From Eledone cirrhosa (taxonomy: Eukaryota), in NCBI GenBank assembly GCA_964016885.1, contig OZ024743.1, forward strand, positions 18,042,001-18,106,000: DNA of 64,000 nucleotides, in the 5' to 3' direction. Positions 17,870 through 64,000 of the stretch are shown here, piece after piece; position 1 is the stretch's first letter, and each line of letters starts with the position of its first letter. The notes below the pieces were generated by a model. It saw nothing but the letters and a program-made list of their open reading frames with translations, ran no database searches and was not told where the DNA came from. The position numbers were made by a program, and so were the translations under genes.

Positions 17870-19040
17870 TAATTGTGGCGTACTGAATCATATTTCTATT
17901 CATCTACTTTGTATAGGAATTTTCCAAATGTAGAACAATGTGAATTATTTAAATTAGAATAACTGTCTAATGAAACACCGGTTGAGGGAATTCAAAATGA
18001 TATCTTTCACCTATACAAAACCTGTGATAAATAATTGAGACGGCACATACATTACGAAGAGTAGGGTTTGGAAGGCGACACTTCGCATTAAACTAATTAC
18101 ACTTTCAATGTTCACCAAATCCACATATGCATAAACAAAACACAATATTCACTCGAAGACTTATGAACCATGTCCTGTATTAAAAGTGCAATTCTACAGC
18201 CGCGAGGATGGTTATCGATATATATATTGATCAATAATGATTATCGTGGGAGATAACATTTCATTGAAAGGACTATACATTATGTCTATAGTTATCGTAA
18301 ATAAATGTTTACAGATATATTCCAATAATTACCAGTCCCGTGCATCAACGCGTAGTAACCAAATTAAGAAAGGCGAGAGCAAGAGTGACGTCATTGATAA
18401 CTTCCTTCTAATAACTCTGCTAAACAGAGTTATTCACTCGTCCAAAGTTCATGCATTACTGACGTGTGGAGTTTTAGCGAACTGCTCTTATCGCGTGAAG
18501 GACGAATCCGGCTAACGTGAATATCGTGAGCATCATCTCGCGAACATGGCCAGGTTTGACAGACAGATTTCCTGACAGGAAGCAGTAAGCAAAGAGGCTG
18601 CAGCGTGGACGTGGCTGAATGGAATGAAGACAGACAATATCCACTTCGACCAATCCCTCATATCCTTTTTCAAGGTCCACATATAAATGAATGTGAGTGT
18701 GGTAAGAGAAGTACTACCACCCGTATATTTCTGAAAAGATGTGTCAACGGAACGGGAATGCCTGTTTGGATACACCTGCCTTGAGCGTTTGCCTGCCGAA
18801 TGATTAATATGGAGAGAACAGAGAGTCCATCTTGGGTGCTCTTGAAGAGTAGGATTATTTCGGTTTGGTGATGATCCTGAGTCACCCATGTGTGTTACTC
18901 CTCCTACTGAGAAATGTTTATCTTAATTATTTTATTATTTGTTATTTGTTTCATTTTTTTAATCGATATTTGTAGTTAACCCTCACTGACTGTCTTTGTC
19001 GCTAATATATTGGCTTTTGCGGCCAATAAAGTAAATATTA
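17870..19040 (+). mobile_element. Ancient, heavily decayed Tx1-like copy (ORF2 3' part plus 3' UTR); may extend left to ~17200
   Basis: Collinear patches match Tx1-A: tgcattactgacgtgtggagtt (57364 region), ggacgaatccggcta (57411), caatccctcatatcctttttcaag (57575), and a 3' end ggcttttgcggccaataaa versus ggcccttgtggctaataaa. Confidence 0.7.
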
Positions 19041-19066
19041 ATGCTGATATTATTATTGTTATTGTT

Positions 19067-20251
19067 ATTCCTTGAATCTCAGTCATTGATGTTGGTTAAC
19101 TGGAAAGTCCGTTGGATTGAATATCAAGCCACTACCTGCAGCCTCAGATATTCAGGACGTATCGGAGGGTTCTTGCTGTTCCAAGCAAGCATGCCTTTTG
19201 AAGCGTTCCAAAAACCGTGAAGGGGCCGATTTTCTTTAACCATCCCTGGAAACCTTTGGAGATAGTCCCCAGTGCGCCTATGACAATCGGGATCACTTTG
19301 ACTTCATGGCAGTTCCAAATCCTTTTCACCTCCCACTTTAGGTCCTGGTATCGGTTAATTTTCTCCCTCTCCTTCTCTTGCACTCTCGTGTCGAACGGGC
19401 AGGCCACATCCACAATCAGGCACGATCTTTTTTCTTTGTCCACAACCACCAGGTCAGGTCTATTGTGTTCCAGTTTTTTGTCCGTCTGTATCCTAAAATC
19501 CCACAGCACCTTCACCTGACTGTTCTCCATCACCGCCTCTGGCCTATGCTCATACCATTTCTCAGAATGTGGTAGATTGTTTACTTTGCACAGGTGCCAG
19601 TGGACCACCCTGCCCATCACATCGTGTCTCCAGCCCTTATAGTGTGTCTGGGCTAGGTGTTTACACTCGGACACAATGTGAGCCACAGTCTCCTCTCTCT
19701 CTCCACAGATCCTGCACAGTGGGCTAGCCTCCTCCTTGTAGATATGGTGTTTCAACCACTTCGTTTTGAGGGCCTGCTCCTGCGCAGCCATTAGCATTCC
19801 TTCTGTAGCCTTTTTGAGGTCTCCTCTTCTCAACCAGTTCCATGTCTCTGGATCTCTAAATTCAGTTTTCTCAAAGAAGGTACTATGAAGGGATTTTCCC
19901 TTAAGGCTGCTCTTCCTCCTTGATGTTATTTCCTCCTTGGACATCCCCTGGCCTACTGTCCCCTCCTTCAGTACAGTTCTGAGCATTGGCTCCTTACTAT
20001 AGGTCACGTATTTGTATAGGTTGTTTTTCTCCATCTGAACACAGTCCTCTATGCTGATCAGACCTCTTCCACCCTCAGATCTCCTTAGGTAGAGTCTATC
20101 GACATCACTCCTCTTGTGGAACATGTTGTAGATAGTCAATAGCTTCCTAGTCTTCCTATCCATTTCTTTTTGTTCAGCAACATTCCATCTCAGAATTCCC
20201 GCACTGTACCTAATAATAGACACAGCTCGGGAATTTACTGCGCTTATGGCA

Positions 20252-20292: not shown

Positions 20293-20652
20293 TTCCTTGA
20301 ATCTCAGTCATTGATGTTGGTTAACTGGAAAGTCCGTTGGATTGAATATCAAGCCACTACCTGCAGCCTCAGATATTCAGGACGTATCGGAGTGTTCTTG
20401 CCGTTCCAAGCAAGCATGCCTTTTGAAGCGTTCCAAAAAGCGTGAAGGGGCCGATTTTCTTTAACCATCCCTGGAAACCTTTGGAGATAGTCCCCAGTGC
20501 GCCTATGACAATCGGGATCACTTTGACTTCATGGCAGTTCCAAATCCTTTTCACCTCCCACTTTAGGTCCTGGTATCGGTTAATTTTCTCCCTCTCCTTC
20601 TCTTGCACTCTCGTGTCGAACGGGCAGGCCACATCCACAATCAGGCACGATC

Positions 20653-20659
<7 letters not shown>
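20293..20659 (-). mobile_element. R4/Dong-like family A, short 5'-truncated copy
   Basis: ORF 20369-20638 nearly identical to the C-terminus of the preceding copy; flanked by (ATT)n. Confidence 0.92.
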
Positions 20660-20707
<48 letters not shown>

Positions 20708-20919
20708 GGCGACCTACGTAGAAAATCGTATTACCGTGAGCTCCGCAAAGTGTTGTTGTTTTCAGTTGTTTCAAATTGCCATTTATGGACATTCTTTGTT
20801 GTTAAGTATTTATGAGTTCACATATATTGCTTTCGGAAAAGGACACTCAAAAAGATTGGGGTCTTGAGCCCAAAATTTAAACATTTATAATTATCAAACA
20901 AAATTTCTTTGAAAAAATC

Positions 20920-22860
20920 ATGGACGACTCACAGCCACACCAAGCTCACAGCCTTCCTCAAAAACTAACACCTCACACCAACACCACCATTGTAAATATT
21001 ACTACTTTTGGCAACACTAAAAATATAAGCATTAGCAATAATTTAAATTTGTCTCATGCAGACATTCATTTCCCGCCATTACCAATGACTGCAGGTTTTG
21101 AAGCCGCCACCCCCACCATCACCTCCACAGCGATAACAGAAACAAAAGAAAAAAATAAATTATCTCGTGACATGGAAATGGATTTACCCAGAATGGACTC
21201 TTCCACACCGAAAAGCACTAACGCCACCAACACCACAACTGAAACTAAAGATAAAAATAACAAAAATAACAATAACAACAACAGCACCAACAACAAGGAG
21301 AATAACAAAACCACCGTGTCTTTTGCCAGAGCAGCAAAAAAGTGCGAAGCAATCGAGTTAACTCAGGCAGAATTAGATGAAGCCAAGAGAATGGTAAAGA
21401 AAGATGAGTACAGGGTCAGTCCCCCCACCCCCACCTAATAAAATGGAGCATCGGCGCCTATGCATAGTGTCTTATCGAACGATTAACATAAAATCGCGCC
21501 GCGTGGAACGGGCATTCGAGTCCCAAATCCAAAAAGCTTTGGGACATGTGTGGGCTCAAAAGCCCCACATCAGACGTGGGCAGAAATATGGAACCATGGG
21601 CGTGTTCTTTGGAACACCACAGGAGGCCAGAGAACACTCCATGGTCCCATTAAGAAGTAACGACTCCACATTCGTCCCAAGATATTGTGGCCAGAGACTC
21701 GTGAAGATCAGGGTGACCCACGTACAACCGGCCATCGAAATTCACTGGCTAACGGCTGCCGTCCTCGCCGGCATCGAGGCCAACACCAAGGAGATAATCG
21801 AAATAGCAGAAGAAAAGAGGAGAACTGGTCCGGATCTGGGCTGGAGCTCCTGAACCAAGCGGACCACAAAAGCATTGAGGAGATCACTGTGTTAATAGAC
21901 CTCACTGACGGCAGCCACCTCACCGTAATCGTCGAGGGCAGAAGGCCGAGGTGTGTCGTTTGTGGTGAAGGAACCCACCTAATGGCTTTCTGCTCTCAGG
22001 CTAAAAGGTTCAGGGCACCTCTCTTACCCACCCCAGTGACTCAACCATCAACACCACCAGCAGCAGAAATGGCAGCAACAAATGTAGCAGCAACAACAGA
22101 AGCAACTGGAGCAGCAACAACCCCAGCAACAGTAGCAAAACCAACACCACCACCATCCAACACGCCACAACTAGCACCAGTGCCTACACCATCCACCACG
22201 CCACAACCAAAACCAACGCCTGTGGAGGATTTTCCACTCACCGACCTATCGCAACTGGAAACAGATTGTGACGACGAGGAGTGGAAAACTGTATCAGGAA
22301 AAAAAGAAAAAAGAAAAATAAGCAAAAAAGTAAAAGAAACTCTTCCTTCCCCCTCCAAAAACAAAATACAGTGGGAAACAAATAAACTATCAAGCCTAAA
22401 TTAGGACAGCTATGCCACCCTCCACACCAGCATCACCAACACCATCACCATCATTAACCCTAACACCACCATCACCAACACCACAAAAGTCACCAAAAAG
22501 CGAAACAGAAACCAACCCACAACAAACGCAAACGAAACAAAAGAACCAAAACGATACACACTACACAGCATTAAAGCAACAACCAACTAATACACTAAAT
22601 CCAACATAACACCAGCATCACAGAAAAAAACTACACAACACCCAAAAGTTCACACCAACTCCACACATACAAATGCCTCGCATCACACAGAAAACGTACA
22701 TGACACTAAAACAAAAATTCCCCAAAGACATCGGAGACTTCCGACAAGTACTCTTCAGGAGGTTTTATAAGGACACCCTTCCGGAGGAGGCCACAAGCAG
22801 TGATAAGGATGGCGAAACCATCCGTCTTCTACGAGAAATAAGGTAAGTGGTCTTTCCCAT
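20920..22860 (+). pseudogene. Tx1-B ORF1 (gag-like), frameshifted
   Basis: Pieces 20920-21438, 21404-21853 and 21685-22404; CVVCGEGTHLMAFC = CX2CX4HX4C; homologous to ORF 52323 (RG.KYGT, EGRRPRC). Confidence 0.8.
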
Positions 22861-22880
22861 CTTTTCCACTCCATTTCAAC

Positions 22881-25800
22881 ATGATCTCAGACAGAATAGG
22901 CAGCATAAATGCGCGTGGCTTTAGTCTTCGTGGAAGCAGGGGCACCTGCTCAACGATCTCAGGTCACTAAACATAGATGTAGTGGCCATCAGCGAGACCA
23001 GAATCTCCGAAGCACGAGTCTTCGCACCGATCTTCGGCGGCTACGATGTGTACGCATCTCCCAGCCGTACTGGATCGTGGGGTGGAGTTGCTGTGTTTTT
23101 TCGCTGAGGTTTGTATCTCGCCATACGGGCCATCTTCCTGTACCCAGAAGGTAAGTTGGTGGTGCTGGACGTGACCAGCGGAGACGGGCAAGCTTTCGGC
23201 TAGTGGCCGCCTATGCCCCGACAGGAGCAGGGCGGCCTGATTTCTTCCGGCGTCTGGATACCTTTCTTGGACCGTCCCGCTCTCTAGAGTTAGTGGGCGA
23301 CTGGTACGGGATCTTAGATGAACACTGGGACTGTGTGGGATTAGCGGATATGGGAGGAGGGTGCAATAGCCTCACCAACCTGCTCAGGCATTTTGAACTG
23401 TCTGACTGTTACCGATTGATTTCCCGAATGTGCCAGTGTGGACTTTGACAAATCGCATAGGGTCATCCAGATCATATCTAGATAGAGTATGTTGTAGGGA
23501 AATAGATATGTCTAGCATAGGCTGTCCACAATTCAAAATAGTCAGCTACATGGACCACAAATTCGTGATCTGTGTGCTTGACTTAGATCGGCTTCATAGA
23601 CGAGGACCCGGCTACTGGAAGATAAACGCGACAGTACCAGCGCGCAAGGCCTACATAGACCGGATTGGCGAACTAGTTAAGCGGGCGTTGACGGGGGCCA
23701 TCGTCAACAACAAGTGGTGGTTTGCTCTGAAAAGAGCGATTAGAATAGAGTCCATTAGGTTTAGTAAGGCCTTAGCTAAAGAAAGAATAGAGCAGAGGGA
23801 GAACTAGTTAGACAATTAGACGAGGCGCTTAGCAAAGGCATCGCGACCGACGTACTTGCGGCGAAATAGGTCGTTGACCAATTCTTCAATGCAAAGCACG
23901 AATTCTGCGTTTTCGGAGATAGGATGCGCGCTCTTAGAGACGAGGGAACGAAAGCCGTTCAATGGGCCAGATGGCGGAGGCACGTCTTGGCAATAAACCC
24001 ACGATCCTATTTTTGGTGCATGGTACTCGATCCCGGGAAAATGTGTTCGGGGGCAGCGGCTGGTCGGATTGAGGGATGTACTTTAATGTCTACCTCGACG
24101 GACTGCCGCGGCTCCCGGCCACTGAGGCGGGGTGTTGCGAAAAGCCGATAATCGCCGCTGAAGTACGGGAGACAATGAGTGGCTGCACAAGGGATAAATC
24201 GCCTGGTTTGGATGGTCTGCTCTATGAACTTTACGTACAGATGCCAGACTTGTTCGGAGGCCTCCTGGCGGACATCTACTGCAACTGGCAACAGAACGGT
24301 AGAATTCCAAGCTCTGTGAGCCGAGGAGCGGTGGCGCTGCTGAGAGAGAATCCGAACAAGGGGGATAACATACATAATTTTGGACTCATAACTCTGCTAA
24401 ACACAGAGTTCAAGATTTTGGTCAAGGTGCTAGCAAAGAGGTTGCCGCTGGTCGTTGTTGGTCTGATAGGAGAGGAGCAGACATGCGCCATTCCCGACAG
24501 ATCCATCCACAACAACCACCACCTCATGCGATACATCATAGAGAGGGTAGCTAGGGAACCTGACCCGGGTGGCTCCTTGATCAATTTAGATCAGTCGAAA
24601 GCTTTCGATAGGGTCGACCATCGTTATCTAGCGGCAATCCGGAGGGCGGCTGGCTTTGGGCCCGTCTTCAGAGGCTGGATCGCATGCATGCACATGAGAT
24701 CTGCTCTGTGGTGAGAGTGAACGGTCACTTTCCGGAACCGTTCAACATCATGCGCTCGGTCCGTCAAGGATGTCCCCTCTCGTCCCTCTTATACGTATTG
24801 ACTCTCGAGCAATTACTCCACAAAATGGAGACGTTGTTGTTCCGCGCGAACTAGGATGCAGAAGATCCGTGTCAGCATATGCGGAAGATGTCACCGTAGT
24901 GGTGTCGAACGCCAAACACTTCGAGGCGATCGGCACTACACTAAGAGAATGCAAAGCGGTGATAGGAGCAATGATCCACCAGTAAAGGCCAATGGGCCTG
25001 CAGCTCGGCACCTGGAGAGGCAGGTCCATGCCGTCCAACAGCGTCGTCGGGTGCTGGACGGACGGTCCGGTTAAATTGCTAGGGGTCTGGTTCGGTCCGG
25101 ACGTTCAGACGGACAAAAACTGGGATGAGGTGACGAGCAGGGTGGCTTCTCTCACCCAGAAATGGGCCGAGAGGAAGCTATCCCTGAAAGGTCGAGCGGA
25201 GGTGGCTAAAGCATACATCGCGTCTGTCATCTACTACCGCCAGACCGACTTATATTGCCCTAAGCCCCTCCTGACTGCGCTGGAGCGTTTGCTCTTTTGG
25301 TTTGTGGAAGGCAGTGCTCCGATGGTGCTCTTCTGTCAACACTCGCTACGTGGAGGGCTGGGCATGCCGTGGCTGATGATGCGCAGACACGCGCTCAGGC
25401 TACGACATCTCCACCTCTTCCTCGACGGTGATCAGGTGTGGTCGCCGTTTGCTAGACGCGTCTATCCCCACCTAGTCTCCTTGACGGATCTGCAGTCCTG
25501 GGTCAACCGAAAACCAAGAGGGAGCGATTGGAGACTGGAATGTCTTCAGGTGCTCACAAACCTCGACCAATGGGGCAATGTATCGGTTGAATCTCCACCT
25601 CGGCGTTCTATAGAGGATTAGTGGAGGGGAAGAGCCACGACGTACTTAGGGAAAATCTAGGCATATACGAAAATCAATTAGCCAATCTCTTAGGAAGAAC
25701 TTTCGGGCCGGGTTCTCTGGACAACTTCCAGAAATCCCTGGACTGGCAGTGCTACTGAGGAGATTTGCCAGTTCGGGATAAACTCTACAGGCACGCACTC

Positions 25801-26171
25801 GTCCAGTGTCCGAGCATTGCTGACTTGTGGATTTATGTCGAACACCTGCTGTCGCGTGTGGGACGGATCCGGCTATCAGCTGACTCCATCGGGAGGATTG
25901 CCCCGCCCTCTTCCTTAGCCGGGAAGCGCAAGCAGTTTTTGTCTGTATGGTGGCCATGGCGAAAGAGATATTATGGTGGACACGTTTGAAAGGGCTGAAG
26001 ACGGGCACTTACCTCTTCGTGTATGCCCTGATTAACTTTTTCAAGTTTCATTTGAAAAGGAAAATCGGGGTAGTGAGGGAAGTGCTCTCTTCCCAGCATA
26101 TTGTTGAATGATGAGTGAGAGAAGCAAGAATGCCCCGAGGGAATGGGCCTACTCTGAGTATGTGTCTGTAA
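22881..26171 (+). pseudogene. Tx1-B ORF2 (APE endonuclease + reverse transcriptase), disrupted
   Basis: RIGSINARG, AAYAPTG, GDWYG, SYLDRV, YMDH, KSPGLDGL, LDQSKAFDRVDH, YAED and VKLLGVWF across frameshifted pieces. Confidence 0.88.
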
Positions 26172-26451
26172 ATTAAAGGTGGAAAACTGGGATAGGGCAC
26201 TTGCCCTGGTGCTCAGGGACTATGTGGCTTATAATGTGCTTTCTCCACGAATGTCCCTCGGAAGTCTCCCCCGTATTGGGGAATTTTTCATTGTTATTTT
26301 TTTGTTACATCCTCTGTTTTTGTTTTTTACACGCAGAAATGCCCATGTGTACCGTCCCGTATGGTCATGTACTGTCCTTAATGTCTACTCTATGTAAACC
26401 CTGGTGGTTAATAAAGAAACCATTATTATTATTATTATTATTGTTGTTATT

Positions 26452-29400
26452 ACTCTTTGAGTCTCAATCATTGATGTTAGTTAACTGGAAAGTTTGTTGA
26501 AATGAATATATAGCTGCTACCTGCAGCCTCAGATATTCAGGACGTATCGCAGGGTTCTTGCTGTTCCCAGCAAGCATGCCTTTTGAAGCGTTCCAAAAAG
26601 CGTGAAGGGGCCAATTTTCTTTAAGCATCCCTGGAAACTTTTTGAGATAGTCCCTAGTGCGCCTATGACAATCGGGATCATTTTGACTCATGGCAGTTCC
26701 AAATCCTTTTTACCTCCCACTTTAAGTCCTGGTATCGGTTAATTTTATCCCTCTCCTTCTCTTGCACTCTCGTGTCGAATGGGCAGGCCACATCCACAAT
26801 CAGGCACGATTTTTTTCTTTGTCCAAAACCACCAGGTCAGGTCTATTGTGTTCCAGTTTCTTGTCCGCCTGTATCCTAAAATCCCACAGCACCTTCACCT
26901 GATCGTTTTCTATCACCGCCTCTGGCTTATGCTCATACCACTTCTCAGAATGTGGTAAATTGTTTACTTTGCATAGGTGCCAGTCGATCACCCTGCCCAT
27001 CACATCATGTCTCCAGCCCTTATAGTGAGTCTGGGCTAGGTGTTTACACTCGGATACAATGTGAGCTACAGTCTCCTCCTTCACTCTCCACAGATCCTGC
27101 ACAGTGGGCTAGCCTCCACCTTGTAAGTATGGTGTTTCAACCACTTCGTTTTGAGGGCCTGCTCCTGCGCAGCCATTAACACTCCTTCTGTAGCCTTGTT
27201 AAGGTCTCCTCTTTTCAACCAGTTCCATGTCTCTGGATCTCTAAATTCAGTTTTCTCAAAGAAGGTACTATGAAGGGATTTTTCCTGAAGGCTGCTCTTC
27301 CTCCTTGATGTCATTTCCTCCTTGGACATCCCCTGGACTATTGTCCCCTCCTTCAGTACAGTTCTGAGCATTGGCTCCTTACTATCAGTCACGTATTTGT
27401 GTAGGTTGTTTTTCCCCATCTGAACACAGTCCTCTATGCTGATAAGACCTCTTTCACCTTCAAAACTCCTTAAGTAGAGTCTATCGACATCACTCCTCTT
27501 GTGGAACGTGTTGTAGATAGTCAATAGCTTCCGAGTCTTCCTATTCATTTTTTTTTGTTCAGCAACATTCCATCTCAGAATGCCCGCACTGTACCTAATA
27601 ATAGACACAGCTCGGGAATTTACTGCACTTATGGCATTCCTACTGTTCAGATGTGACTTTAATAAGCTCCTTACTCTCCGAATGTATTCAGTTCTTATCA
27701 ATTCCTTCATTTTTTTGTTCTTGATGTCATCACCTTCCAGAACACCCACATACTTGTATCCTTCTTCAGAGTCGATTTCCTTTATCATCTCACCTGTTAG
27801 TACCTGGATTCCGTTACTTCTGCTCAACTTACCCCTCTTCATCACTATATATTCCACACTTTCTAATACCAAATTGCATACATATATCACTGCTGAAAAT
27901 ACGGACAGAGTCAACAAGCACATCCAACTCCTTCTCACTCTTCCCGAAGAGCTTAAGATCGTCCATGAAGAGGAGGTGATTGATGGTAAGCCCTCCCTTT
28001 CCCGACTTGTATCCTGCTCTCACTTTTCGCAGTACACTGGTCAGGGGCATCAGGGCAAGGACAGACAACAGAGGGGACAGACTATCTCCCTGGAAGATAC
28101 CTCTCTTGATCTTTACGCTTTCCAAGGATTCTCCAGTTGATGTTAACTCTGTTTCCCAGGACTTCATACTTTTGCCCAACAACTGTCCGATGTTATCTGC
28201 CACTTTGAAGATCTCCAGGCTTTTGGTGATCCAAGAATGAGGCACCATGTCAAATGCCTTTTTGTAGTCTATCCATCCCATGGCAAGACCAGTGTGTCTC
28301 CTCTTGCAATTCCTCATTACCATCTTATCAATAAGTAACTGGTCCTTTGTACCACGTGACTCCTTTCGGCATCCTTTCTGTTCGTCCGGTAACAAGTTGT
28401 TTGTGTGGAGGTGATGGTAGATTTCCTCAGACATAATGCTTGTCAACAGTTTCCACAATACGAACAGACATGTGTTAGGTCTATAGTTGGTAACATCATT
28501 ACCCTTGATTCGGTCTTTCATTATCAGAACTGTGGTACCTTTTGTCAACCACTCTGGTACCTCACCTGACATCAAGCAGTCATTGAACATGGTTGTCAGT
28601 TTCGGGTTGAGGGATGTTCTATTTTTAATCCAATAGCCTTGCACTACATCTGGGACTTGTGATTTCCAGTTGGTTAGTTTTTTGGCCTGCCCCTTAAGAG
28701 TTTCAACTGTGATACTCAAATCAGTTTGTTGGTGTGCCTGTTCATTAATCTCATTCTGTACTGTCTCAATACACACTGCCTGGTCATTATGTTTAACATC
28801 CTGCTCCCATATTCCTCACCAGAATGATTTAGTTTGATCCGCCTCAGGGATCAAGTCGTTGCCTCTTTCTTTCCCTTCAAGCTGTCCAAACAGCATCTTT
28901 TGGTTTTTGTCGAACATGCGGTTCTGTCTCTACTGACTGACTCTGTTCTCGTATCGCCTGATGTTTGCACTCTTTGCTACAATGCGTTGCTTCAGTTCCT
29001 CTATGATAATATTTAGCTTTTTCCTCCTAGTTTTGTACTTTATTTCCAGTCTATTTTCAGTGTCCCATTCATTAGGGACTCAAGCTTTCCAATGTCATTT
29101 CTCATTTCCCTGATTTGACCACTCAGTCGTTTCTTCCACCAAGGATCTGCTCTTTCCTCTCGCTTTTATACCAAGTAGTTTACTCACCGTATTTCCTGTT
29201 GCTTTGAGGATATTGTTGCACTGGTGAAGGCTCCTCGCCTCAAGGCATGGGATAACTTTGTTTACCTTAGCTGTTGTTTCTTTTAACTTTTTCCTGTCTA
29301 TAAATCTTAGGTTCATAGGTCTCCCACTATCATTGTTCAATTAATCTACCACTAAGTTTAGGATATCAACCAAATCTTATCCTAGCCCGTCAGCATTCAT

Positions 29401-31380: not shown

Positions 31381-31393
31381 ATTATTATTATTA

Positions 31394-31507: not shown

Positions 31508-31543
31508 ATTATTATTATTATTATTATTATCATTATTGTTATT

Positions 31544-33540: not shown

Positions 33541-33572
33541 TTATTATTATTATTATTATTATTATTGTTGTT

Positions 33573-47121: not shown

Positions 47122-47157
<36 letters not shown>

Positions 47158-50948: not shown

Positions 50949-51188
50949 TTACTTTATTTTGTCGCGTTTTATCCTTATCCGCCAAGGGGTAATCATTTCG
51001 TGTTACCACTTCTAGAACGAGTGTCAACCAAGACTAGAGGGGTCGTTCTCCCCTAGAGACATGGCTATTCCCCGCCGGCCGCCATCCCGGTATTTCTTGG
51101 TCACGGGGTTTTCTTTTTGTTGTTTTTTTTAAATTGTTATTATCATGAGTGGTTCATTAATGTGAGCATTGCGTGGCTTAAGAATGAA

Positions 51189-51245
51189 ATTATTAATAAT
51201 TGTCTCCACTCCAGGCACAAGGCCAGCAATCACCCAGTGCATTAC
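51189..51245 (-). mobile_element. SINE 3'-tail fragment
   Basis: Minus strand gtaatgcactgggtgattgctggccttgtgcctggagtggagacaattatt matches the SINE tail. Confidence 0.75.
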
Positions 51246-52322: not shown

Positions 52323-54301
52323 ATGGAAATGTTCGACCTTGAAACGGTAAACAACGTTCAGGTCAAAAGTTTAAAGGCAGCCACTGCAGATTTCACCACG
52401 ACTACGACGGCTACAGTCATGCCTGTCATCCACTCTACTGAATGTGAAGGCAAAACTAAAAAGCTACCATCACAACCCTCTGCCATAGCAGCAGTATCAT
52501 CTGAAAACGACATCACCACCACCGCCACCACCACCACCACCACAACAACAACTCAGAGCAATAACGACAAAAACACCGACAGCTTCAATGTAAACAAGGA
52601 TGGCGGTGGCAACAGCAAGAATGACAACAACAACAATAAGAGCATCAGAAACACCACATTTGCTGCAGCAGCAGCAGCAGCAAAAACAAAGCGCTTATTG
52701 AATATCGATATTGATATTAGCGATAAAGACGAACAGTTGGCCAAAGCGTGGAGGCTAATTAAACGGGAGAAGTCCTGGGCAAACCTGACCATCCCGGACG
52801 AAGCAATAGCGGCCATGCAAAGGAGGACGGTGCTCTTTCGATGTATTTCGGTGCAGACACGAAAAGTGGAACTTGCGAGCCAAGCAGAGGTAGAGGCTGC
52901 TTTGGAGTACATCGGAAGTAACATAGAGTACAAAGCAAGAGGCAAACAGTTCGGTACCATCTCGGTACTGTTCAAATCCGAGGACCTCGCTATTAAGCAC
53001 TCGGTGATCCCCTGCAGAACGGAACGCATTATCATGCATCCGTCCTATATGGGTAAAAGGACAGTGAAGGTACGCATTCCCAGCATCCCACCAGGAATGA
53101 ACATATGGTGGCTGCTGGGATGCGTAATCGAGGAGGAGACAGACACCACCCTCCTGGACATCAAAAGGACAGAGAGAGAAGACTGGTCCGGAATGGATTT
53201 GGAGATTCTTCTCCAAATGAAACCGGAGGATATAAATAACATCCCAGATTTTGCCCGCCTGCAGGACGGGACAACAATCCAACTAATGATTGACGGAAGA
53301 AGGCCACGTTGCTTCGTTTGCGGGGAAGCCACGCATCTTCAAGCCTTCTGCCCTCAGCGCAAAAATGCAGGGTGTCGCAAACCTCCTTTGTTGCCAACGC
53401 CAGTGTCAGCACGGAAAGCTGCACCACCACCACCACCAAAAACAACATCAACAAAAACACGGACACCAACATCAAAAGCAGCCGGATCACCACCAACACC
53501 AAAACCAATCCAAGGAGAAAACGAGGAAAGCTCTCCCACTCCCCCTACCCCCAACTATATACATAGACGAAAAAAAAATAAACGCACACACAGACACAGA
53601 GACACTCACAGACACAGACCCTTTGTCTTCCAGCAACGAAGATGGAGGAAAACCCAAAAGTGCAAAAAAACAGAGAAAACTCACAAAAAAAAAAAAAGCC
53701 CCAACAAAACACAAAAACACACACAACAAAAAATACAGACACCACTAACGCAGACACTTCCCCAATAACATCAGCACCATCAGCAACATCGACACCACCT
53801 CCACAATCCCCGAAACGCAAACAACCTAAACAAACACAAGTACAAATAAACACACAAATACCTGAAATTGCAGACACCACACCTACAACAAACATAGACA
53901 TACCCGAAACAACACCACCAAAACCATCGCCACCACCTTCACCAAAACGAAAACAAATAAAACCACACCAACAACATGTTAAAAACTTCGTGCTTGTCAG
54001 AAGGGCCAACGATAAACTGATGGCCCTCTTAGCGCGAAGCGAGGACATTCAAACAGAGGGGGAGATTTTTGAAATGAGCACATTTTGCGTGCCAGAAGAT
54101 TTGCTTCTGGTCCGAATGTCACTCAATTCCTTCAAAGAAATTCGAGAGAGCTTTCCTCAAGACGTGGGAAACCCGAATGTGAAACCCACATCAAGACTTT
54201 TAAAGGGGTTCCCAAAAGAAACCCCACCAACCATGGAGGTCGAACCACCCGACCTTCACAAGACCCGGGAGGTAAGTAAACCTTCCCCCTCTCTCTCTTA
54301 G
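52323..54301 (+). pseudogene. Tx1-A ORF1 (gag-like zinc knuckle), frameshifted in homopolymer-rich region ~53550-53700
   Basis: CFVCGEATHLQAFC (CX2CX4HX4C); continues in ORF 53642-54301, which ends 9 nt before ORF2. Confidence 0.82.
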
Positions 54302-54310
54302 CTTACCAAT

Positions 54311-57300
54311 ATGGCCATATTAAGAGTAGGAAGTTTAAATGTTCGCGGCCTCGGGTCACCCTGGAAGCAGGGTCGCCTGCTCAACGACCTCCGGTCGCTG
54401 GAAATGGATGTGATTGCCGTAAGCGAGACCAGAATTTCCGACACGCGTGCACTAGCACCCATTTTCGACGACTATCAGATCTTCGCATCTGTTAGCAGGC
54501 CGGGAATGGGGGGTGGGTGGCAGTGCTGTTTAGGAAAAGACTGGATCTCGAGGTAAGGTCGATCTTCCGGGACCCGGACGGTAATTTGGTGGTCTTGGAT
54601 GTGAGCAGTAGCGAAGGTGGTGCCTTTAGACTGCTGGCTGTCTACGCCCCTACAGGGGCCGGACGACCTGACTTCTTTAGGCGCCTGGAGACCTTTCTGG
54701 GTACGTCTCGCCCTTTACTGTTAACGGGGGACCAGAATGGCATCTTAGACGCACGCTGGGATTGTGTGGGAGTAGCCGATAGGAGCGGGGGGTGCAAAAG
54801 CCTCAAGCACCTACTCAGCCAGTTCCAACTGTCTGACAGGTATCGACTAGACTTCCCCAATGTGCCAGTATGGATATGGACCAACCGAATGGGGTCATCG
54901 TATATAGACAGAATCTTCATTAGGAAAATAGATAGAAATAGTGTGGGCTGTCCGCTTTTTAAAACGGTCGCCTATTCAGATCACAAATTTGTGATCTGTA
55001 CGGTCGACCTAAATAAAACGCGTAGGTTAGGACCCGGTTACTGGAAGCTGAACATGTCATTTCCGGCACGTAAGGCTTACAGGGACCGAGTCAATAAGTT
55101 AGTTAAGCAAAAGTTGACAGGGGGGATATCAACAACAGATGGTGGGGGGCTCTCAAAAGAGAGATTAGAGTAACTTCGATAGAGTTCAGCAAAGAACTAG
55201 CGTTAGAGAAAAATAGAAAGGAGGGGGAGCTGGTAGATAAGTTAGACGAGGCTATTTGTAGTGGCATCGCAACTGACGTGCTAGCGGCGAGAATGACATT
55301 AGATCATTTCTTCAATGCCAAACATGAAGGTTGCATTGTCAGAGCTAAGGCGCGTGCGCTGAGAAACGAGGGAACTAAAGCTGTTCGATGGGCCCGGGTG
55401 GCGGAGGCGCAGCGTGGTAATAAAACCACAATTCGGTCTATGGCGGACCGAGACGGACACGAGATAAGCGATTCCAAGCGGATGTTTGAGGCCTTTCGCC
55501 AGCACTTTGCTCGGTTGTTCGGGGAGAGTGGCGGGTCAGAGAGAGTAGCGGATTTCAGTCCCTACCTTGACGGCCTGCCGCGCATCTCGACGGTCGACGC
55601 TGAGCGCTGCGAAAGGCCGATTACTTCAGCCGAAATTCAGGACGCCCTTGTCGGCTGCATGAGGCGCAAGTCACCCGGTTTGGATGGCCTGCCCTACGAG
55701 CTTTACGTAAATATGCCAGACTTGTTCTCCGAACTCCTCGAAGCACTCTACTGTAACTGGCAGCAGAATGGGAGTATTCCCAATTCTGTGAGCAGGGGAG
55801 TGGTGACGCTGATAAGGAAAGACGAGAACAAGAGGGATACATTAGACAACTTCAGGCCCATAACTCTGCTCAACACAGAGTTTAAGATTTTGGCCAAGGT
55901 GTTAGCAAAGAGATTGGCGCTTGTCGTCGAGGATTTGGTTGGGGAGGCGCAAACTTGCGCAATCCCAGCCAGGTCCATACACGACAATCTCCACCTCATG
56001 CGATACATCATAGAGAGGGTACGGTGTAAACCTGGCTTCGGTGGGGCACTGATCAATTTAGATCAATCGAAAGCATTCGATAGGGTCGACCATCGGTATC
56101 TGGAGTTTGTCCTCAAAGCAGCTGGCTTCGGCCCTGTCTTTAGAAGCTGGATCGTTGCAATGCACAGCGCACACGCTCGGAGGTCAAGGTTAATGGCCAT
56201 CTCTCGGAACCATTTCGGCTCTCCCGATCGGTCCGTCAAGGGTGCCCTCTCTCTTCCCTTCTGTACGTATTGACTCTCGAGCCTTTACTGCGGAAGCTGG
56301 AGCTGTTGCAGGGCATCCCGCTCGAATCGGGACGTGGAAAGGCGGTGTCGGCTTATGCGGACGACATCACCGTGATGGTGTCGAACACTTCAGAAATCGA
56401 GGTGGTCGGCACCTTATTGAAGGAATATGAAAGGTTGACAGGAGCCAAAATTAACCCGGAAAAGTCGGTGGGCTTGCAGCTCGGAACCTGGAGAGGCAAG
56501 CCCATGCCGTCCAAGAGCGTCGTGGGGCACTGGACGGACGGACCAGTAAAGTTGCTCGGGGTTTGGTTCGGACCAGACCTCCAGGTGGAAAAGAATTGGG
56601 ACGAGGTAACGAGCAGAGTAGCCAGTCTCACCCAAAAATGGGCTGGAATGAAGCTATCACTGAAAGGTCGCGCGGACGTGGCGAATGCGTACATCGCGTC
56701 CGTTATCTATTACCGCCTAACCGTCGTGCCTTGCCCCCGTCCGCGCCTCGTCAAGTTGGAACGGCTCCTCTTCAAATTCTTGTGGAGGGGACAAGTTCCG
56801 TTGGTGAGGCGGTCCATCTGCTGCCAGCACCCTCTACGCGGAGGGCTGGGCATGCCGTGGCTAATGATGCGCAGACATGCGTTGAGGCTGCGACAACTCC
56901 AGATATTCTGCCTCAATGGTGAACAGGTGTGGTCGCCGTTTATCAGACGGGCCTTTCCGCAGCTCATTTCTTTGACTGAGCTGCAGTCCTGGGTCAAGAA
57001 GAGACCGAGACTGGGTGACTGGCACCTGGAATGTTGCCAGGCACTCACTGCCCTCTACCAAGCGGGCAATGCGATCAGTGGAACTTCCACTCTCGAGTTC
57101 TATAGAGGATTAGTGGTGGGCAAGTGCGATGACGCACTCGGAGAAGCGTTGGGCCTCGACGAAGTCGAACTGACCAGTCTGTACCGGAGGACTTTTGAGC
57201 CGGGGATGATGGACAATTTCCAGAAATCCCTCGCTTGGCAGTGCTACCGGGGGGCACTGCCGGTTCGGGATAAACTCTACAGGCACGGAAGTGCTGTCAG

Positions 57301-57724
57301 ACGGACCTGCCCAAGATGCGCACAGAACGACGAAACCGTTCTGCACGCACTTGTGCAATGTCCGTGCATTACTGACTTGTGGAGTTATGTCGAACAGCTA
57401 CTGTCGCGTGTGGAACGAATCCGGTTATCGGCCGAGTCCATAGTGAAGATCGAGCCGCCACCTTCCTTAAGTCAGGAAGAGCAGGACATTTTCCTCTGTC
57501 TAGTGGCAGTTGCGAAAGAGATTATATGGTGGACCAGGTTGAAAGGACTAAAGACAGACACTTTTCTCTTCGGCCAATCCCTCATCAACTTCTTCAAGTT
57601 TCACCTGGAAAGGAGGGTGAGGGTGGAGAGAAAAGTGCTGCCCCCCAGTACATTTGCTAAAAGGTGGGTGAATGTGGCGAGAATGGCTCGTGTGAATGGG
57701 CCTACTCTGACCATGCGCCTATAG
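54311..57724 (+). pseudogene. Tx1-A ORF2 (APE + RT + C-terminal CCHC), three apparent frameshifts
   Basis: RVGSLNVRGL, VSET, AVYAP, GDQN, YIDRIF, YSDH; KSPGLDG, FRPITLLN, DQSKAFDRVDH, YADD; CPRCAQNDETVLHALVQC; breaks near 54510, 55125 and 56165. Confidence 0.92.
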
Positions 57725-57999
57725 GCTGGCTAACTTGAGGAGAGGGGTGCTCTCCTGTGTGCCCTAGAAGCGCAGGGTGGTTCAGGATTGGTGGGGTACC
57801 CGAATCACCCCAGGGTCGTCCAACCCCTATCGGGGAATTTATTTTGTTATATGTTGCATAGTTTATTTTATATTTTTATATTTTCATTGTTAAATTAGTC
57901 TTGCCATTGTGCACTTTTACTCGACCTTATTGTAAACCCCCACTGGCCCTGTCTTTGTATTGTCCCCTACATGTCGGCCCTTGTGGCTAATAAATGAAA

Positions 58000-58056
<57 letters not shown>

Positions 58057-58057
<1 letters not shown>

Positions 58058-58242
58058 GGGCGGTGGATTGGCAGTATCAGTAGAGAGTCGGACACCATGC
58101 TTTCCAGCATAGTTACGTCCCTTTACGGTCTGAGTTCAAATCAGGCCGAGGTTAACTTTGCCTTTCATCCTTACGGGGTCGATAAAATAAAGTACCAGTA
58201 ATGTACTGGTTAATTGCTGGCCTTGTGCCAAAAGTAGAAACA
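58057..58242 (+). mobile_element. Full-length tRNA-type SINE inserted in the Tx1 (ATT)n tail
   Basis: Box-A-like tggcagtatcagt, box-B-like gagttcaaatc (~58132), central tttcatccttacggggtcgataaaataaagtaccag, (ATT)n tail; five copies or fragments in the window. Confidence 0.85.
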
Positions 58243-58266: not shown

Positions 58267-60368
58267 GTTCTTTGAGTTTCACTTATTCATGTTATTTAAC
58301 TGGAAAGTTTGTTGAAATGAATATCAAGCCATTACCTGCAGCCCTAAATATTCAGGACGTATCGGAGGGTTTTTGCTGTTCCCAGCAAGCATGCCTTTTG
58401 AAGAGTTCCAAAAAGCGGGGCGGGACCAATTTTCTTTAACCATCGCTGGAAACTCTTTGAGATAGTACCTAGTGCGCCTATGACAATCGGGACCACTTTG
58501 ACTTCATAGCAGTTCCATATCCTTTTTACCTCCCAATTTAAGTCCTAGTATCGGTTAATTTTCTCCCTCTCCTTCTCTCGCACTCTCGTGTCGAATGGAC
58601 AGGCTACATCCACAATCAGGTACGATCTTTTTCCCTTGTCCAAAACCACCAGGTCATGTCTATTGTCTTCCAGTTGCTTGTCCATCTGTATCCTAAAATC
58701 CCACAGCACCTTCACCTGATCGTTTTCCCTCACCGACTCTGGCTTATGCTCATACCACTTCTCAGAATGTGGTAAATTGTTTACTTTGCACAGGTGCCAG
58801 TGGATCCTCCTGCCCATCACATCATGTCTCCAGCATTTATAGTAAGTCTGAGCAGAGATCTTTAAACTCGGATACAATGTGAGCCACAGACTGCTCTCTC
58901 TCTCCACAGATCCTACACAATGGGCTATCCTCCTCCTTGTAAATATGGTGTTTCAGCCACTTCGTTCCTCTTGTGGAACATGTTGTAGATAGTGAATAGC
59001 TTCCTAGTCTTCCTATCCATTTCTTTGTGTTCAGCAACATTCCATCTCAGAATTCCCGCACTGTACCTAATAATAGACACAGCTCGGGAATTTACTGCAC
59101 TTATTTTATTCCTACTGTTCAGATGTGACATTAATACGCTCCTTACTCGTTGTATTCAGATCTTATCAATTCCTTCATTTTTTTGTGCCTGATTTCATCA
59201 GCCTCCAGAACATCTAAATATTTGTATCCCACTTCAGCGTCAATTTCCTTTATCATCTCACCTGTTGGTACCTAGATTCCGTTCCTTCTACTCAATTTAC
59301 CACTCTTCATCACAAGGACTCCACACTTACTAATACCAAATTGCATACATATATTATTGCTGAAAATACGGACAGTGTCAACAAACACATCCAACTGCTT
59401 CTCACTCTTCACGAAGAGCTTAAGATCTTCCATGAAGAGTAGGTGATTGATGGTAAGCTCTCCCTTTCCCATTTTGTATCCTGCTCTCACTTTTCGTACT
59501 ATAAGGGTCAGGGGCATCAGGGCAAGGACAAACAACAGAGGGGACAAACTATCTCCATGGAAAATACCTCTCTTGATCCTCACGCCTCCCAAGGATTCTC
59601 CGCCCCATGTTAACACTGTTTTCCAGGACTTCAAACTTTTGCTCAACAATTTTCTGATGTTATCTGCCAGCCTGAAGATCGCTAGGCTTTTGGTTATCCG
59701 ATAATGAGGTACCATGTCGAATGCATTTTTGTAGTCTATCCTCCCATGTCAAGAAAAGTGTGTCTCCTCATGCAATTCCTCAGTACCATCTGATCAATAA
59801 TTAACTGGACCGTGTACCACGGGACTTGTTTCGGCATCCTCTCTGTTCGTCCGGTAACAAGTTGTTTGTGTCTAGGTGATGGTAGATTTCCTCAGACATA
59901 ATACTTGTCAACAGTTTCCACATTACGGACAGACATGTGATAGGTCTATAGTTGGTAACATCATTACCCTTGATTCGGTCTTTAATTATCAGAACTGTGG
60001 TACCTTCTGTCAACCATTCTGGTACCTCACTTGACATGAAGCAGTCATTGAACATGGTTGTCAGTTTCGGGTGGAGGGATGTTATATTGTTAATCCAATA
60101 CCCATGCACACCATCTGGGCCTGGTGATTTCCAGTTGGTTAATTTTTGGCCTGCCCCTTAAGAGTTTCAACTGTGATACTCAAATAAGTTTGTTGGTGTG
60201 CCTGTTCACTAATCTCCTTCTGTACTGTTTCAATCCACACTGCCTAGTCATTATGTTTAACATCCTGCTCCCATATTCCTCTCCAGAATGATTTAGTTTG
60301 TTCCCCCTCAGGGATCAAGTCGTTACCTCTTTCTTTCCCTTCAAGCTGTCCAAACAGCATCTTCTGGT
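58267..60368 (-). mobile_element. R4/Dong-like family A, older diverged 5'-truncated copy with an internal deletion near 58966
   Basis: Pieces 59801-60109, 59272-59715, 58925-59131 and 58545-58907; FHKR is joined directly to the TKWLKHH region. Confidence 0.88.
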
Positions 60369-60390
60369 TATTATTATTATTATTGTTATT

Positions 60391-62668
60391 ACTCTTTGAG
60401 TCTCAGTCATTGATGTTAGATAACTGGAAGGTTTGTTGAGATGAATATCAAGCCACTACCTGCAGCCTCAGATATTCAGGACGTATGGGAGGGTTCTTGC
60501 TGTTCCCAGCAAGCATGCTTTTGAAGCGTTCCAAAAAAGCGTGAAGGGGCCAATTTTCTTTAACCATCCCTGGAAACTTTTTGAGATAGTCCCTAGTGCG
60601 CCTATAACAATCGGGATCACTTTGAGTTCATGGCAGTTCCAAATCCTTTTTACCTCCCACTTTAAGTCCTGGTATCGGTTAATTTTCTCCCTCTCCTTCT
60701 CTTGCACTCTCGTGTCGAATGGGCAGGCCACATCCACAATCAGGCACGATCTTTTTTCTTTGTCCAAAACCACCAGGTCAGGTCAATTGTGTTCCAGTTT
60801 CTTGTCCGTCTCTATCCTAAAATCACACAGCACCTTCACCTAATCGTTTTCTATCACCGCCTCTGGCTTATGCTCATACCACTTCTCAGAATGTGGTAAA
60901 TTGTTTACTTTGCATAGGTGCCAGTGGATCACCCTGCCCATCACATCATGTCTCCAGCCCTTATAGTGAGTCAGGGCTAGGTGTTTACACTCGGATACAA
61001 TGTGAGCCACAGTCTCCTCTCTCTCTCCACAGATCATGCACAGTGGGCTAGCCTCCTCCTTGTAAATGTGGTGTTTCAACCACTTCGTTTTGATGGCTTG
61101 CTCCTGCGCAGCCATTAACATTCCTTCTGTAGCCTTTTTAAGGTCTCCTCTTTTCAACCAGTTCCATGTCTGTGGATCTCTAAATTCAGTTTTCTCAAAG
61201 AAGGTACTATGAAGGGATTTTTCCTGAAGGTTGCTCTTTCTCCTTGATGTTATTTCCTCCTTGGACATCCCCTGGCCTATTGTCCCCTCCTTCAGTACAG
61301 CTCTGAGCATTGGATCCTTACTATCAGTCACGTATTTGTGTAGGTTGTTTTTCTCCATCTGAACACAGTCCTCTATGCTGGTAATACCTCTTCCACCCTC
61401 AGATCTCCTTAAGTAGAGTCTATCGACATCACTCCTCTTGTGGAACATGTTGTAGATAGTCAATAGCTTCCTAGTCTTCCTATCCATTTCTTTTTGTTCA
61501 GCAACATTCCATCTCAGAATTCCCGCACTGTACCTAATAATAGACACAGCTCGGGAATTTACTGCACTTATGGCATTCCTACTGTTCAGATGTGACTTTA
61601 ATACGCTCCTTACTCTCCGAAGGTATTCAGTTCTTATCAATTCCTTCATTTTTTTTGTTCTTGATGTCATCAGCCTCCAGAACGCCCAAATACTTGTATC
61701 CTTCTTCAGAGTCAATTTCCTTTATCATCTCACCTGTTGGTATCTGGATTCCGTTACTTCTGCTCAACTTACCCGTCCTCATCACAATGACTCCACACTT
61801 ACTAATACCAAATTGCATACATATATCATTGCTGAAAATAGGGACAGTGTCAACAAGCACATCCAACTCCTTCTCACTCTTCCCGAAGAGCTTAAGATCG
61901 TCCATGAAGATAGGTGATTGATGGTAAGCCCTCCCTTTCCCAACCTGTATCCTGCTCTCACTTTACGCAGTACACTGATCAGGGGCATCAGGGCAAGGAC
62001 AAACAACAGACGGGACAGACTATCTCCCTGGAAGATACCTCTCTTGATCTTCACGCTTCCCAAGGATTCTCCAGTTGATGTTAACTCTGTTTACCAGGAC
62101 TTCATACTCCTGTCCAGCAACTGTCTGATGTTATCTGCCACCTTGAAGATCTCCAGGCTTTTGGTGATCCAAGAATGAGGCACCATGTCAAATGCCTTTT
62201 TGTAGTATATCCATCCCATGTCTAGACCAGTGTGTCTCCTCTTGCAATTCCTCATTACCATCTTATCAATAAGTAACTGGTCCTTTGTACCACATGACTT
62301 CTTTCGGCATCCTTTCTGTTCGTCCGGCAACAAGTTGTTTGTGTGGAGGTGATGGTAGATTTCCTCAGACATAATGCTTGTCAACAGTTTCCACATTACG
62401 GACAGACATGTGATAGGTCTATAGTTGGTAACATCAATACCCTTGATTCGGTCTTTCAGTATCAGAACTGTGGTACCCTTTGTCAACCACTCTGGTACCT
62501 CACCTGACATCAAGCAGTCATTGAACATGGTTGTCAGTTTCGGGTGGAAGGATGTTATGTTTTTAATCCAATACCCCTGCACACCATCTGGGCCTGGTGA
62601 TTTCCAGTTGGTTAGTTTTTTGGCCTGCCCCTTAAGACTTTCAACTGTGATACTCAAATCAGTTTGTT
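60391..62668 (-). mobile_element. R4/Dong-like family A, 5'-truncated and frameshifted
   Basis: Pieces 62091-62714, 61782-62063, 61627-61905, 60840-61715 and 60468-60773. Confidence 0.92.
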
Positions 62669-62688
62669 TATTATTATTAATATTACAG

Positions 62689-64000
62689 TTGCATTTATCT
62701 TGCTTTATGTTCATCCTGGGATTTGCGATAACTAATCATTAGACCCATTAGGTATCATTCCTAGAGCGCCTCCAACCACTGGTATTGTTTTAGTTCTCAA
62801 TTTCCATATTTTCCAATTTCTATCTCCAGGTCCTTATACTTGCTCAATTTTTCAAATGTTTTTATAGATACATTCTTGTCTATTGGAACAGACATATCAA
62901 TTAGCAGACATACCCTCTTTTTATAGTCCTTCAATATTATATCAGGTCTATTTGCATCTTTTTTGGGGTCTGTTTGGATGCTAAAGTTCCACAAGATTGA
63001 GATGTGATCTTTTTCAAGTATGGGAGGTGGTTGATGCTCCCACCAATTCTTTTGATGGGGCAGGTCAACATGTTTACACATTATCCAATGTATGTATTGT
63101 GCAGCTCTGTCATGCCTGTTTAGGTATTCGGCTGGAGCTATAGGACTGCACATTGAAATTATATGGTCAAACGTCTCTGGTTGTTTTTTGCATACACGGC
63201 ATAATGGGCTGCATCCACTTATTATTATGTTGGCTTGGTAATTTTTTGTTGGCAGACACTGATCTTGTGCTGATAGTCCAGAGGATGCCAACCACTGATG
63301 GGTTAAAGTTTTGTCAACATCAGGATTGTTAGCTCGATCTGGGTATTTTCCATACAGAGGCTTTTCTTGCCATTTCTTAGCCAGTTTCTGTAGCAGTTCT
63401 TTATTTGCAGTTACTTTTACCTGCTTTGATTTTTCTGTGTTTTCCATTTCAGCAGGAAATGGGACTTCTGAAATGTGTAGTTCATTACTATATCTTTGTG
63501 CATCTTTTGTAATGGAATATGATCTTTTGATGTTTAGGTGTTTCAAAACGAGTTTGATCATCCAATCATGTGATTCCCTTAGATATGTAGATAATCCAAT
63601 TGTTGCAGTTTCCAACGCAATGTCTAACTGGATTAACCCACGTCCTCCTTCTTTCCTAGGGAGATATATTCTATCTATATCTGCCTTAGGGTGATGCATT
63701 CTGTGCATGGTTAAGAATTTTCGAATTTTTGTATCGAGCCTACGGATCTCTGTGCTTGACCAGTTGATGACATTGTAACTGTAGGTTACTACTGGTATGG
63801 CAAGCGTGTTTATGGCATCGATCCTATTCCTTGCGTTCAATTCCGTTCTTAAGATTGCTCTTACTCTGCGGTAACATTCCTTCCTTATCCTTTCCCTCAT
63901 TATGGAGTGCTTGATTCCGTCTCCTTCACAAACACCTAGATATTTGTAGGATTTTTTTTGATCAAGTTCTGTTATCACGTTCCCCCGATCAAAATTAATG
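62689..64000 (-). mobile_element. R4/Dong-like family B, second copy, continues past the window; ~195-bp deletion at the ORF end/3' UTR
   Basis: ORF 62797-63978 closely matches the C-terminal third of 47298-50948; 62714/62715 joins positions equivalent to 47182 and 47377. Confidence 0.92.

Follow-up and report, generated by a model that had tools for sequence, protein, structure and literature searches.

Across the right-hand 45 kb of a 64,000-nucleotide stretch of Eledone cirrhosa DNA (assembly GCA_964016885.1, contig OZ024743.1, positions 18,042,001 to 18,106,000 of the forward strand; hereafter the window), two classes of long interspersed nuclear element (LINE) and a short interspersed nuclear element (SINE) sit within one (ATT)n microsatellite, with strand orientation following element class. 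Dong/R4-like LINEs, which carry a restriction-like endonuclease (RLE), lie on the minus strand, and Tx1-like LINEs, which carry an apurinic/apyrimidinic endonuclease (APE), lie on the plus strand together with the SINEs of the spacers. Three tracts stand head to head between 5' ends, a 7.1-kb block is present twice in tandem, and two distant Dong families, Dong-A and Dong-B, begin with the same 5' leader. We give somewhat better than an even chance to a model in which all three groups insert into this microsatellite in fixed opposite orientations, likely as each group primes on a different strand, and in which the leader of full-length Dong elements likely came from a Tx1-type element. The clade names Dong/R4 and Tx1 are assigned from element architecture and motif style rather than from phylogeny.

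Organization of the array

Self-BLAST, reference mapping and a table of element junctions assign ~98.6% of positions 19048-64000 to retroelements with (ATT)n tracts between them. The remaining 639 of 44,953 bases are mostly tract, in agreement with a preliminary description of this DNA as some 45 kb of retroelements with (ATT)n spacers. All 13 RLE segments (11 related to Dong-A, two to Dong-B) are on the minus strand with sense flanks of (AAT/TAA)n. On the plus strand are Tx1-B (20708-26421), Tx1-A (52095-58001), an old, internally deleted Tx1-like remnant (~18340-19047; found by tblastn, 68% nucleotide identity to Tx1-A) and spacer SINEs at 31395, 38515 and 58057. Among tracts of at least three units, 24 are ATT-type and three AAT-type in 19040-64000, against three and four, respectively, outside the array in 2482-19039. 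The left edge of the array is the 3' ATT tail of the old Tx1 element, a possible seed for the rest.

Some of these segments share a single origin. The region at ~28.9-36.0 kb is present twice in tandem (7.1 kb, 99% identity), and Dong-A copy 5 (33576-38500) is a recombinant with the 3' half of copy 7 and the 5' half of copy 3: by 378 informative sites it is 97-100% identical to copy 3 down to ~36,000 and 99-100% identical to copy 7 below, with the switch near 35970-36000. The adjoining block at 38515-40655, made up of a duplicate of SINE 31395 (plus) and a duplicate of copy 4 (copy 6, minus), matches 31381-33566 at 99.0%, with 21 substitutions and seven indels. One 7.1-kb duplication thus accounts for copies 5 and 6 and SINE 38515, and the independent insertions number 11 for RLE elements and two for spacer SINEs. 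The earlier count of 13 minus-strand RLE copies is thus right for segments, but only 11 are independent, all 11 on the minus strand (two-sided binomial p=0.001). The block itself either arose by real duplication, with Dong copies undergoing unequal exchange, or is a haplotype mis-join.

Since tails cannot test targeting and 5' flanks can, we counted 5' junctions. In the junction table, Dong elements meet sense (TAA)n at 13 of 13 3' junctions and 12 of 12 visible 5' junctions, and the 10 visible 5' junctions that are independent are all sense-AAT. Three of the four Tx1 5' junctions visible in the window are sense-ATT, one of them belonging to a truncated copy in a flipped tract, and three of four independent SINEs have ATT-like 5' flanks. 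The head-to-head tracts at 20658-20707 [(ATT)16, between Dong-A copy 2 and Tx1-B], 31381-31394, and 52067-52094 [(ATT)9, between Dong-B and Tx1-A] each lie between two 5' ends and are therefore the tail of neither neighbour.

The truncated copy at 1-2455 on the minus strand, offered in the preliminary description as an internal control, behaves as stated there: it is a 5'-truncated Tx1-A-like LINE, 95% identical to 55198-57654, and (TAA)8.7 at 2456-2481 gives it a sense-ATT 5' flank; the copy continues beyond the window, where its 3' end lies. The same description placed Tx1 copies on the plus strand with ATT flanks, which holds for orientation and for Tx1-A and Tx1-B, but the old Tx1 remnant meets a tract at its 3' end only, with none at its left end near 18340. 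Spacer SINEs are on the plus strand as it claimed, but that at 38515 is the duplicate, and a fourth array piece (51201-51245) is on the minus strand within a locally flipped micro-tract.

Public reads from other loci

Four of 18 listed public runs were mapped on 47130-58025 with tracts masked; mixed loose ends (agreement 0.35) and runs with a share under 0.2 were left out of the evidence, and summed contig depths are not taken as copy numbers. In one group of reads from another locus (103 reads with one start, the shorter side being 30 letters), Dong-B is truncated at 47932 and continues into TTATTATTATTATTAT and then the Tx1-A 3' end, with polarity as in the array. In run X1, a 1505-nt contig of depth 31, with 25 differences, covers the Dong-B open reading frame (ORF) start, the SINE piece and the leader, while 3' Dong-B contigs have depths of 53-68 and Tx1-A pieces 6-9; the depth-31 contig is as expected if the leader junction belongs to a multi-copy Dong-B family. 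Loose ends at 51245 run on as SINE in three of the four runs shown, and those at 51194 reveal (ATT)n SINE tails in other runs.

A restriction-site-associated DNA (RAD) run contributes 7,675 molecules that end at the AATT site at 51986, within the leader, with the first mate rightward; its pile-ups at 50375 and 56851 coincide with GCATGC sites. Three of the six window leaders have a Dong-A 3' GCATGC just rightward with no AATT between, which suggests that leader-tract-Dong tandems may be common in the organism of that run. Separately, 58 reads carry a bare ATT tract (TATTATTATTATTA) between repeated positions 48210 and 48185 of Dong-B, which may record the insertion of a tail alone, outside any tract, with 26 bp duplicated.

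A leader shared by two Dong families

All six 5'-complete RLE copies, four of them independent, start with one common module of 0.7-1.1 kb that the preliminary description overlooked. It occupies ~30230-31380 in Dong-A copy 3, ~44560-45220 in copy 7 and 51246-52066 (minus) in Dong-B copy 10, where we infer it to be a Tx1-like 5' module, and six of six leaders carry the Dong-type AAT 5' flank in the junction table. Over its first ~0.4 kb the leader is 84-86% identical between Dong-A and Dong-B, against ~60% for reverse transcriptase (RT) DNA and 32-48% for protein in the longer tblastn segments; the leader therefore moved between the families long after their split. In Dong-A it passes into the untranslated region (UTR) without a tract, in two subfamilies. 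The Dong-B leader gives way to 45 nt of SINE end (51201-51245, minus; sense flanks TATTATATTATT and ATTATT then AATAAT), after which comes ATTATT|AATAAT, where a flip in tract polarity is preserved. Most leaders also contain a micro-tract, AATAATAATAGTAATTATTATTATT, with a polarity flip inside (30965-30990, 33127-33152 and 51681-51703). Copy 7 lacks it, and the extreme 5' end of its leader is a (GAA)10 expansion (45192-45222) adjoining (ATT)23.

Copy 4 (31544-33540, minus) is a short element consisting of the leader, three 438-bp leader repeats and ~200 bp of Dong-A 3' end, a layout that fits a candidate non-autonomous element but could also have been left by a subsequent deletion. The repeats, ~438-bp tandem copies of the leader interior, lie at 31766-33122 and, in copy 6, at 38883-40236, and a 35-bp duplication marks the place where the leader part of copy 4 meets its Dong-A tail (31712-31784). 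Three long relatives of Dong-B, P0054, P0085 and P0113, have an OTU-like N-terminal domain (E 7e-4, 0.04 and 5e-12, respectively), and on these predicted domains the Dong-B lineage appears to gain 5' modules elsewhere too.

The leader is probably of Tx1-type origin, judging from end-anchored likeness and composition. Aligned with the Tx1-A 5' UTR, to which the likeness is weak (44-47% identity), the first 230 nt of the four independent leaders score z 6.0, 4.0, 3.6 and 2.0 over shuffles, where Tx1-A against the Tx1-B 5' UTR gives 7.9 and 16 reverse-strand and Dong-UTR controls give at most 0.9. Composition-matched windows, which overlap one another, equalled the leader/Tx1-A score in 0 of 896, 0 of 678, 3 of 1740 and 6 of 1570 cases (top 0.4%); in the same test against Tx1-B, 2, 3, 14 and 12 windows reached the score. 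The first A-rich ATG stands at 213-219 nt in leaders and at 207 and 223 in Tx1, and the DNA after this ATG is A/C-rich and G-poor like Tx1 ORF1 starts and unlike Dong. An inverted repeat around GGGCTTTAAGCCC was seen in the Tx1-A 5' UTR (52238-52266), with a similar GGCTTRAGYCC in Tx1-B and in leaders.

Several results pull the other way. Identity between leader and Tx1 is just 42-47%, in AT-rich DNA, and with leaders as the query one AT-rich background window scored above Tx1-A and 132 of 9979 windows equalled the Tx1-B score. Leader/Tx1 nhmmer E-values of 3.7-42 are not significant, protein matches are low-complexity (p 0.004-0.88 over eight tests), and the leaders yielded no conserved domain of Tx1 ORF1. 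On the side of leader capture, a descriptor for a hepatitis delta virus (HDV)-like ribozyme gave no sense-strand matches in six regions, in a form that had no positive control. Rfam scans likewise returned no ribozyme family, their matches being low-complexity chance, and the 5'-end fold had z 0.08. The leader motif had no matches in the genome and viral contigs searched, and a protein search with Tx1-A ORF1 returned 14 distant proteins, none near enough to test the leader.

It is quite possible, if on balance less probable, that the leader is not Tx1-derived, being instead a Dong-lineage module of other origin that was template-switched between Dong-A and Dong-B, or an independent non-autonomous element that inserts immediately upstream. 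The homology statistics are weak, copy 4 has the leader mobile with only a Dong tail, and a vestigial tract and the SINE piece stand between leader and UTR in Dong-B, all as such an origin would have it. What it accommodates poorly is likeness to both Tx1 5' UTRs anchored at the end, with matching ATG distance and composition, along with the tract-free passage of leader into Dong-A UTR in two subfamilies and a Dong-B leader junction that is multi-copy in run X1.

Coding capacity of the elements

Dong-B copy 10 (47159-52066) is full length, with an open 1216-codon frame (47298-50948) encoding RT (RVT_1 E 9e-27), a CCHC knuckle at 1029, PD..D at 1114 and KLSKY (KxxKY) at 1146. This is the Dong/R4 layout, in which one ORF encodes RT and, after it, CCHC and a PD-(D/E)xK endonuclease, and five of five structure matches in the PDB are R2-type proteins. 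Its motif style (GIFHGDSLSPLLF, YMDDLKL, VPVVVGALG) looks R4/Dong-like and would set it apart from the RLE clade HERO; among the 120 relatives listed, none bears a clade name. The RHD motif after the zinc knuckle is present in Dong-A copy 1, whereas Dong-B copy 10 reads R-Y-D; among 120 relatives examined, 115 of the 116 with the pattern have its His. With Tyr in this motif, copy 10 may be inactive, and at the base concerned, 47777, nearly all public read depth differs from the window. A metagenome scan for relatives with flanks gave two distant loci (29-32% identity), and viral sequence scans with Dong-B and with Tx1-A found no relatives.

The second Dong-B, copy 13 (62689-64000), is 93% identical to copy 10 and continues beyond the window. 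Dong-A copies are broken, with longest open stretches of 247-375 codons. Copies 3 (26452-31380) and 7 (40691-45220, frame broken) are full length, and the 5'-truncated copies are copy 1 (19072-20251, with CCHC, RHD and PD..D in an open frame), copy 2 (20297-20657, placed by reference mapping and the junction table), copies 8 and 9 (45306-47123, with (ATT)16 between them) and copies 11 (with an internal deletion) and 12 (together 58267-62667). All are on the minus strand.

Tx1-A is full length and has the layout of the Tx1 clade, with a zinc knuckle (CFVCGEATHLQAFC) in ORF1 and Exo_endo_phos, RVT_1 and zf-RVT domains in ORF2, which is in frameshifted pieces. The Exo_endo_phos match (E 9e-5) is below the curated cut-off, and the best structure matches of this endonuclease are LINE-1-type endonucleases. 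Its nearest database proteins, at 36-50% identity, come without clade names. A stretch of ORF2 covering 16% of the query has a 52%-identical counterpart within a predicted protein of Octopus bimaculoides, weak evidence for an octopod host. The Tx1-A 3' end has AATAAA 10 nt ahead of the tract and no poly(A). Tx1-B, also full length with broken frames, has an ORF1 plus an APE-RT-zf ORF2 in frameshifted pieces and is ~71-75% identical in nucleotides to Tx1-A in ORF2.

The full-length SINE at 58057-58242 (plus) has (ATT)n on both sides, the downstream one as its tail, and a B-box-like GTTCAAATC (read by eye); in a search for a tRNA-like head, ARAGORN found no genes and Rfam no tRNA match. A 5'-truncated copy lies in a spacer (31395-31507, plus; reference mapping and junction table), and a third outside the array (14587-14765, plus) is 90% identical to SINE 58057, with no 5' tract and a short ATTATT tail. 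Compared with the LINE tails, the SINE tail has a 12-nt match to Tx1-A (p 0.02-0.07) that falls below background windows and so does not single out a partner. The sequence CCTTGTG(C/G)CTAA, common to the 3' ends of the SINE (31486-31497) and Tx1-A (57978-57992) and not significant against background, possibly forms a small stem-loop. Elsewhere, (ATT)n SINE tails exist in Chlamydomonas (PMC3747384).

The window is animal DNA with abundant AC/AT microsatellites. Outside the array it holds an AT/AC-rich short repeat family in both orientations (7240-7786 and 9432-10443) and, left of the array, an assembly gap of 200 N (14172-14371).

Discussion

In target-primed reverse transcription, an element with the sense flank (AAT)n is primed by a cut (ATT)n strand and one with the sense flank (ATT)n by a cut (AAT)n strand, so the opposite sense flanks in the array would imply opposite primer strands. 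Under this model, the RLE would nick the ATT strand and the APE the AAT strand, and RNA ends would pair with the freed primer, Dong through ...AAUAACAAU and Tx1 through AAUAAA-N10-AUU. Each insertion would split a tract, add a tail and leave tract on both sides, raising the number of targets, while blocks would be added by unequal exchange among Dong elements (or, alternatively, by mis-joining of haplotypes). The proposal that an RLE and an APE converged on one microsatellite while priming on opposite strands fits the young junctions, the head-to-head tracts and the junction at an outside locus, with strand priming the part that we infer; the proposed self-extension by insertion has to give up ~7 kb that came from duplication. 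Counting against common targeting are the old Tx1 element and SINE 14587, both without 5' tracts; for Tx1, the flanks counted are those of the window plus one outside junction.

Leader capture could follow from the same geometry. At the polarity flip, a Dong element would have inserted shortly after the 5' end of a Tx1-type element and in its orientation, and read-through from the Tx1-type internal promoter would have produced a chimeric RNA that, copied by the Dong protein, gave rise to leader-bearing Dong families. The captured promoter would replace the host-transcript-plus-ribozyme route of silkworm Dong. We put forward only tentatively the broader idea that a shared niche let the two deepest LINE groups trade parts, with Dong capturing a Tx1 internal promoter and this module then reaching both of the distant Dong families as well as a non-autonomous mini-element. 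The setting would be self-extending, strand-polarised arrays supplied by Tx1 families that would be the first with specificity for (ATT)n.

Orientation might also be set by pairing between RNA tail and primer rather than by the strand choice of the endonuclease: nicking of AT-rich DNA would be loose for both enzymes, and only nicks able to pair with the (AAU)n or (AUU)n end of the element itself would be productive. The 3' ends of both groups are target-like repeats that lack poly(A), annealing of RNA to target helps initiation in SART1 (PMC7265360), two of eight Tx1/SINE 5' ends lie outside tracts, and the 58 reads with bare TATTATTATTATTA between Dong-B 48210 and 48185, whose joint type is not visible, point the same way. 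Set against this, endonuclease swaps between TRAS1 and SART1 shift specificity (PMC7265360), and the endonuclease is named the main determinant of Tx1-clade targets (PMC4494074). We regard tail pairing as rather unlikely to be the sole basis of orientation, although by window data it and endonuclease strand choice cannot be told apart.

More doubtful still is a scheme in which only Dong is target-specific, Tx1 and SINE elements with (ATT)n tails drop into AT-rich sites, and polarity reflects local chance plus seeding. Just three Tx1 5' junctions are informative, the 5' ends of the old Tx1 and SINE 14587 are not in tracts, and other runs also show (ATT)n at the tails of SINEs; yet two Tx1 families ~71-75% alike both begin exactly at a tract, a truncated Tx1 copy 16 kb outside the array has the flipped tract at its 5' end, and public reads show the same polarity at another locus. 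An array built mainly by tandem duplication or mis-assembly is very improbable, and largely refuted for the other 38 kb: one 7.1-kb block at 99% would fit just as well with two haplotypes fused at a Dong copy, but elsewhere Dong-A 3' ends are 85-99% alike with truncation points that all differ, and five element families are interleaved.

With an octopod as the host, a shared, self-renewing target would explain some of the transposable element hotspots of octopus genomes. Because RLE and APE elements use one substrate, the array also offers a clean way to separate nicking from RNA-primer pairing as the determinant of orientation. A captured promoter, if real, would account for the transcription of an RLE element that targets microsatellites and has no host gene around it. 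Dong-R4 (1129 insertions) and L1-Tx1 (421) are among the largest groups of recently active LINEs in Octopus vulgaris (PMC13282606), and activity of both, with hotspots, is also described in PMC8967140. PMC13282606 reports its hotspots without a targeting mechanism, and in its available text 'target' and 'nested' have no occurrences.

Comparison with known systems

Neither an (ATT)n Tx1 nor an array of Dong and Tx1 nor leader capture by Dong appeared in the literature searched, which did not extend to Repbase, Dfam or most subscription papers. That Dong targets TAA repeats and Tx1-clade families target microsatellites, as the preliminary description stated, is borne out by PMC3812793 and PMC4494074. 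The concept itself proved less new than that description implied: sharing on opposite strands (TRAS/SART) and RLE/APE convergence (Utopia/Keno) are already published. Taken by itself, the polarity rule is less of a surprise than it was held to be, and the shared leader adds something new.

Dong has a TAA microsatellite target in Bombyx mori, Anopheles gambiae and the snail Biomphalaria glabrata (PMC3812793), and a primer in PMC3774820 gives it a sense-TAA 5' flank. Dong-A and Dong-B resemble it in their (TAA)n target and in a single ORF with RT, CCHC, RHD and PD..D. The 5' end of silkworm Dong is a self-cleaving HDV-like ribozyme (PMC3774820), whereas here a 0.7-1.1 kb leader is common to two distant families and no ribozyme was found. 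Tx1-clade targets include TC (Kibi), TTC (Koshi), TTCC/TTTC (crocodilian elements), U2 and transposons (PMC4494074). Tx1-A and Tx1-B are, like the first three, two-ORF APE LINEs flanked by a microsatellite; unlike theirs, the apparent target is (ATT)n, which is not named in the passages of PMC4494074 consulted, though its figure labels and supplements may list more. The HERO clade comprises RLE elements, some of them microsatellite-specific (PMC4640811).

Shared targets have two close precedents. TRAS and SART are APE elements of the R1 clade. They insert in (TTAGG)n in opposite directions (PMC7265360) and so, like the elements here, are two LINE families using one tandem repeat in opposite directions; that pair is telomeric and both are APE, whereas the repeat that an RLE and an APE group have in common in E. 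cirrhosa is trinucleotide and interstitial. Utopia (RLE) and Keno (Tx1, APE) evolved in parallel toward U2 snRNA genes (PMC4640811), with identical 3' flanks and hence the same orientation, and insertion does not multiply the target gene, unlike in the array. Set beside these systems, the array would be a variant on published behaviour, with an (ATT)n-specific Tx1 and a leader shared between distant Dong families as its apparently new parts.

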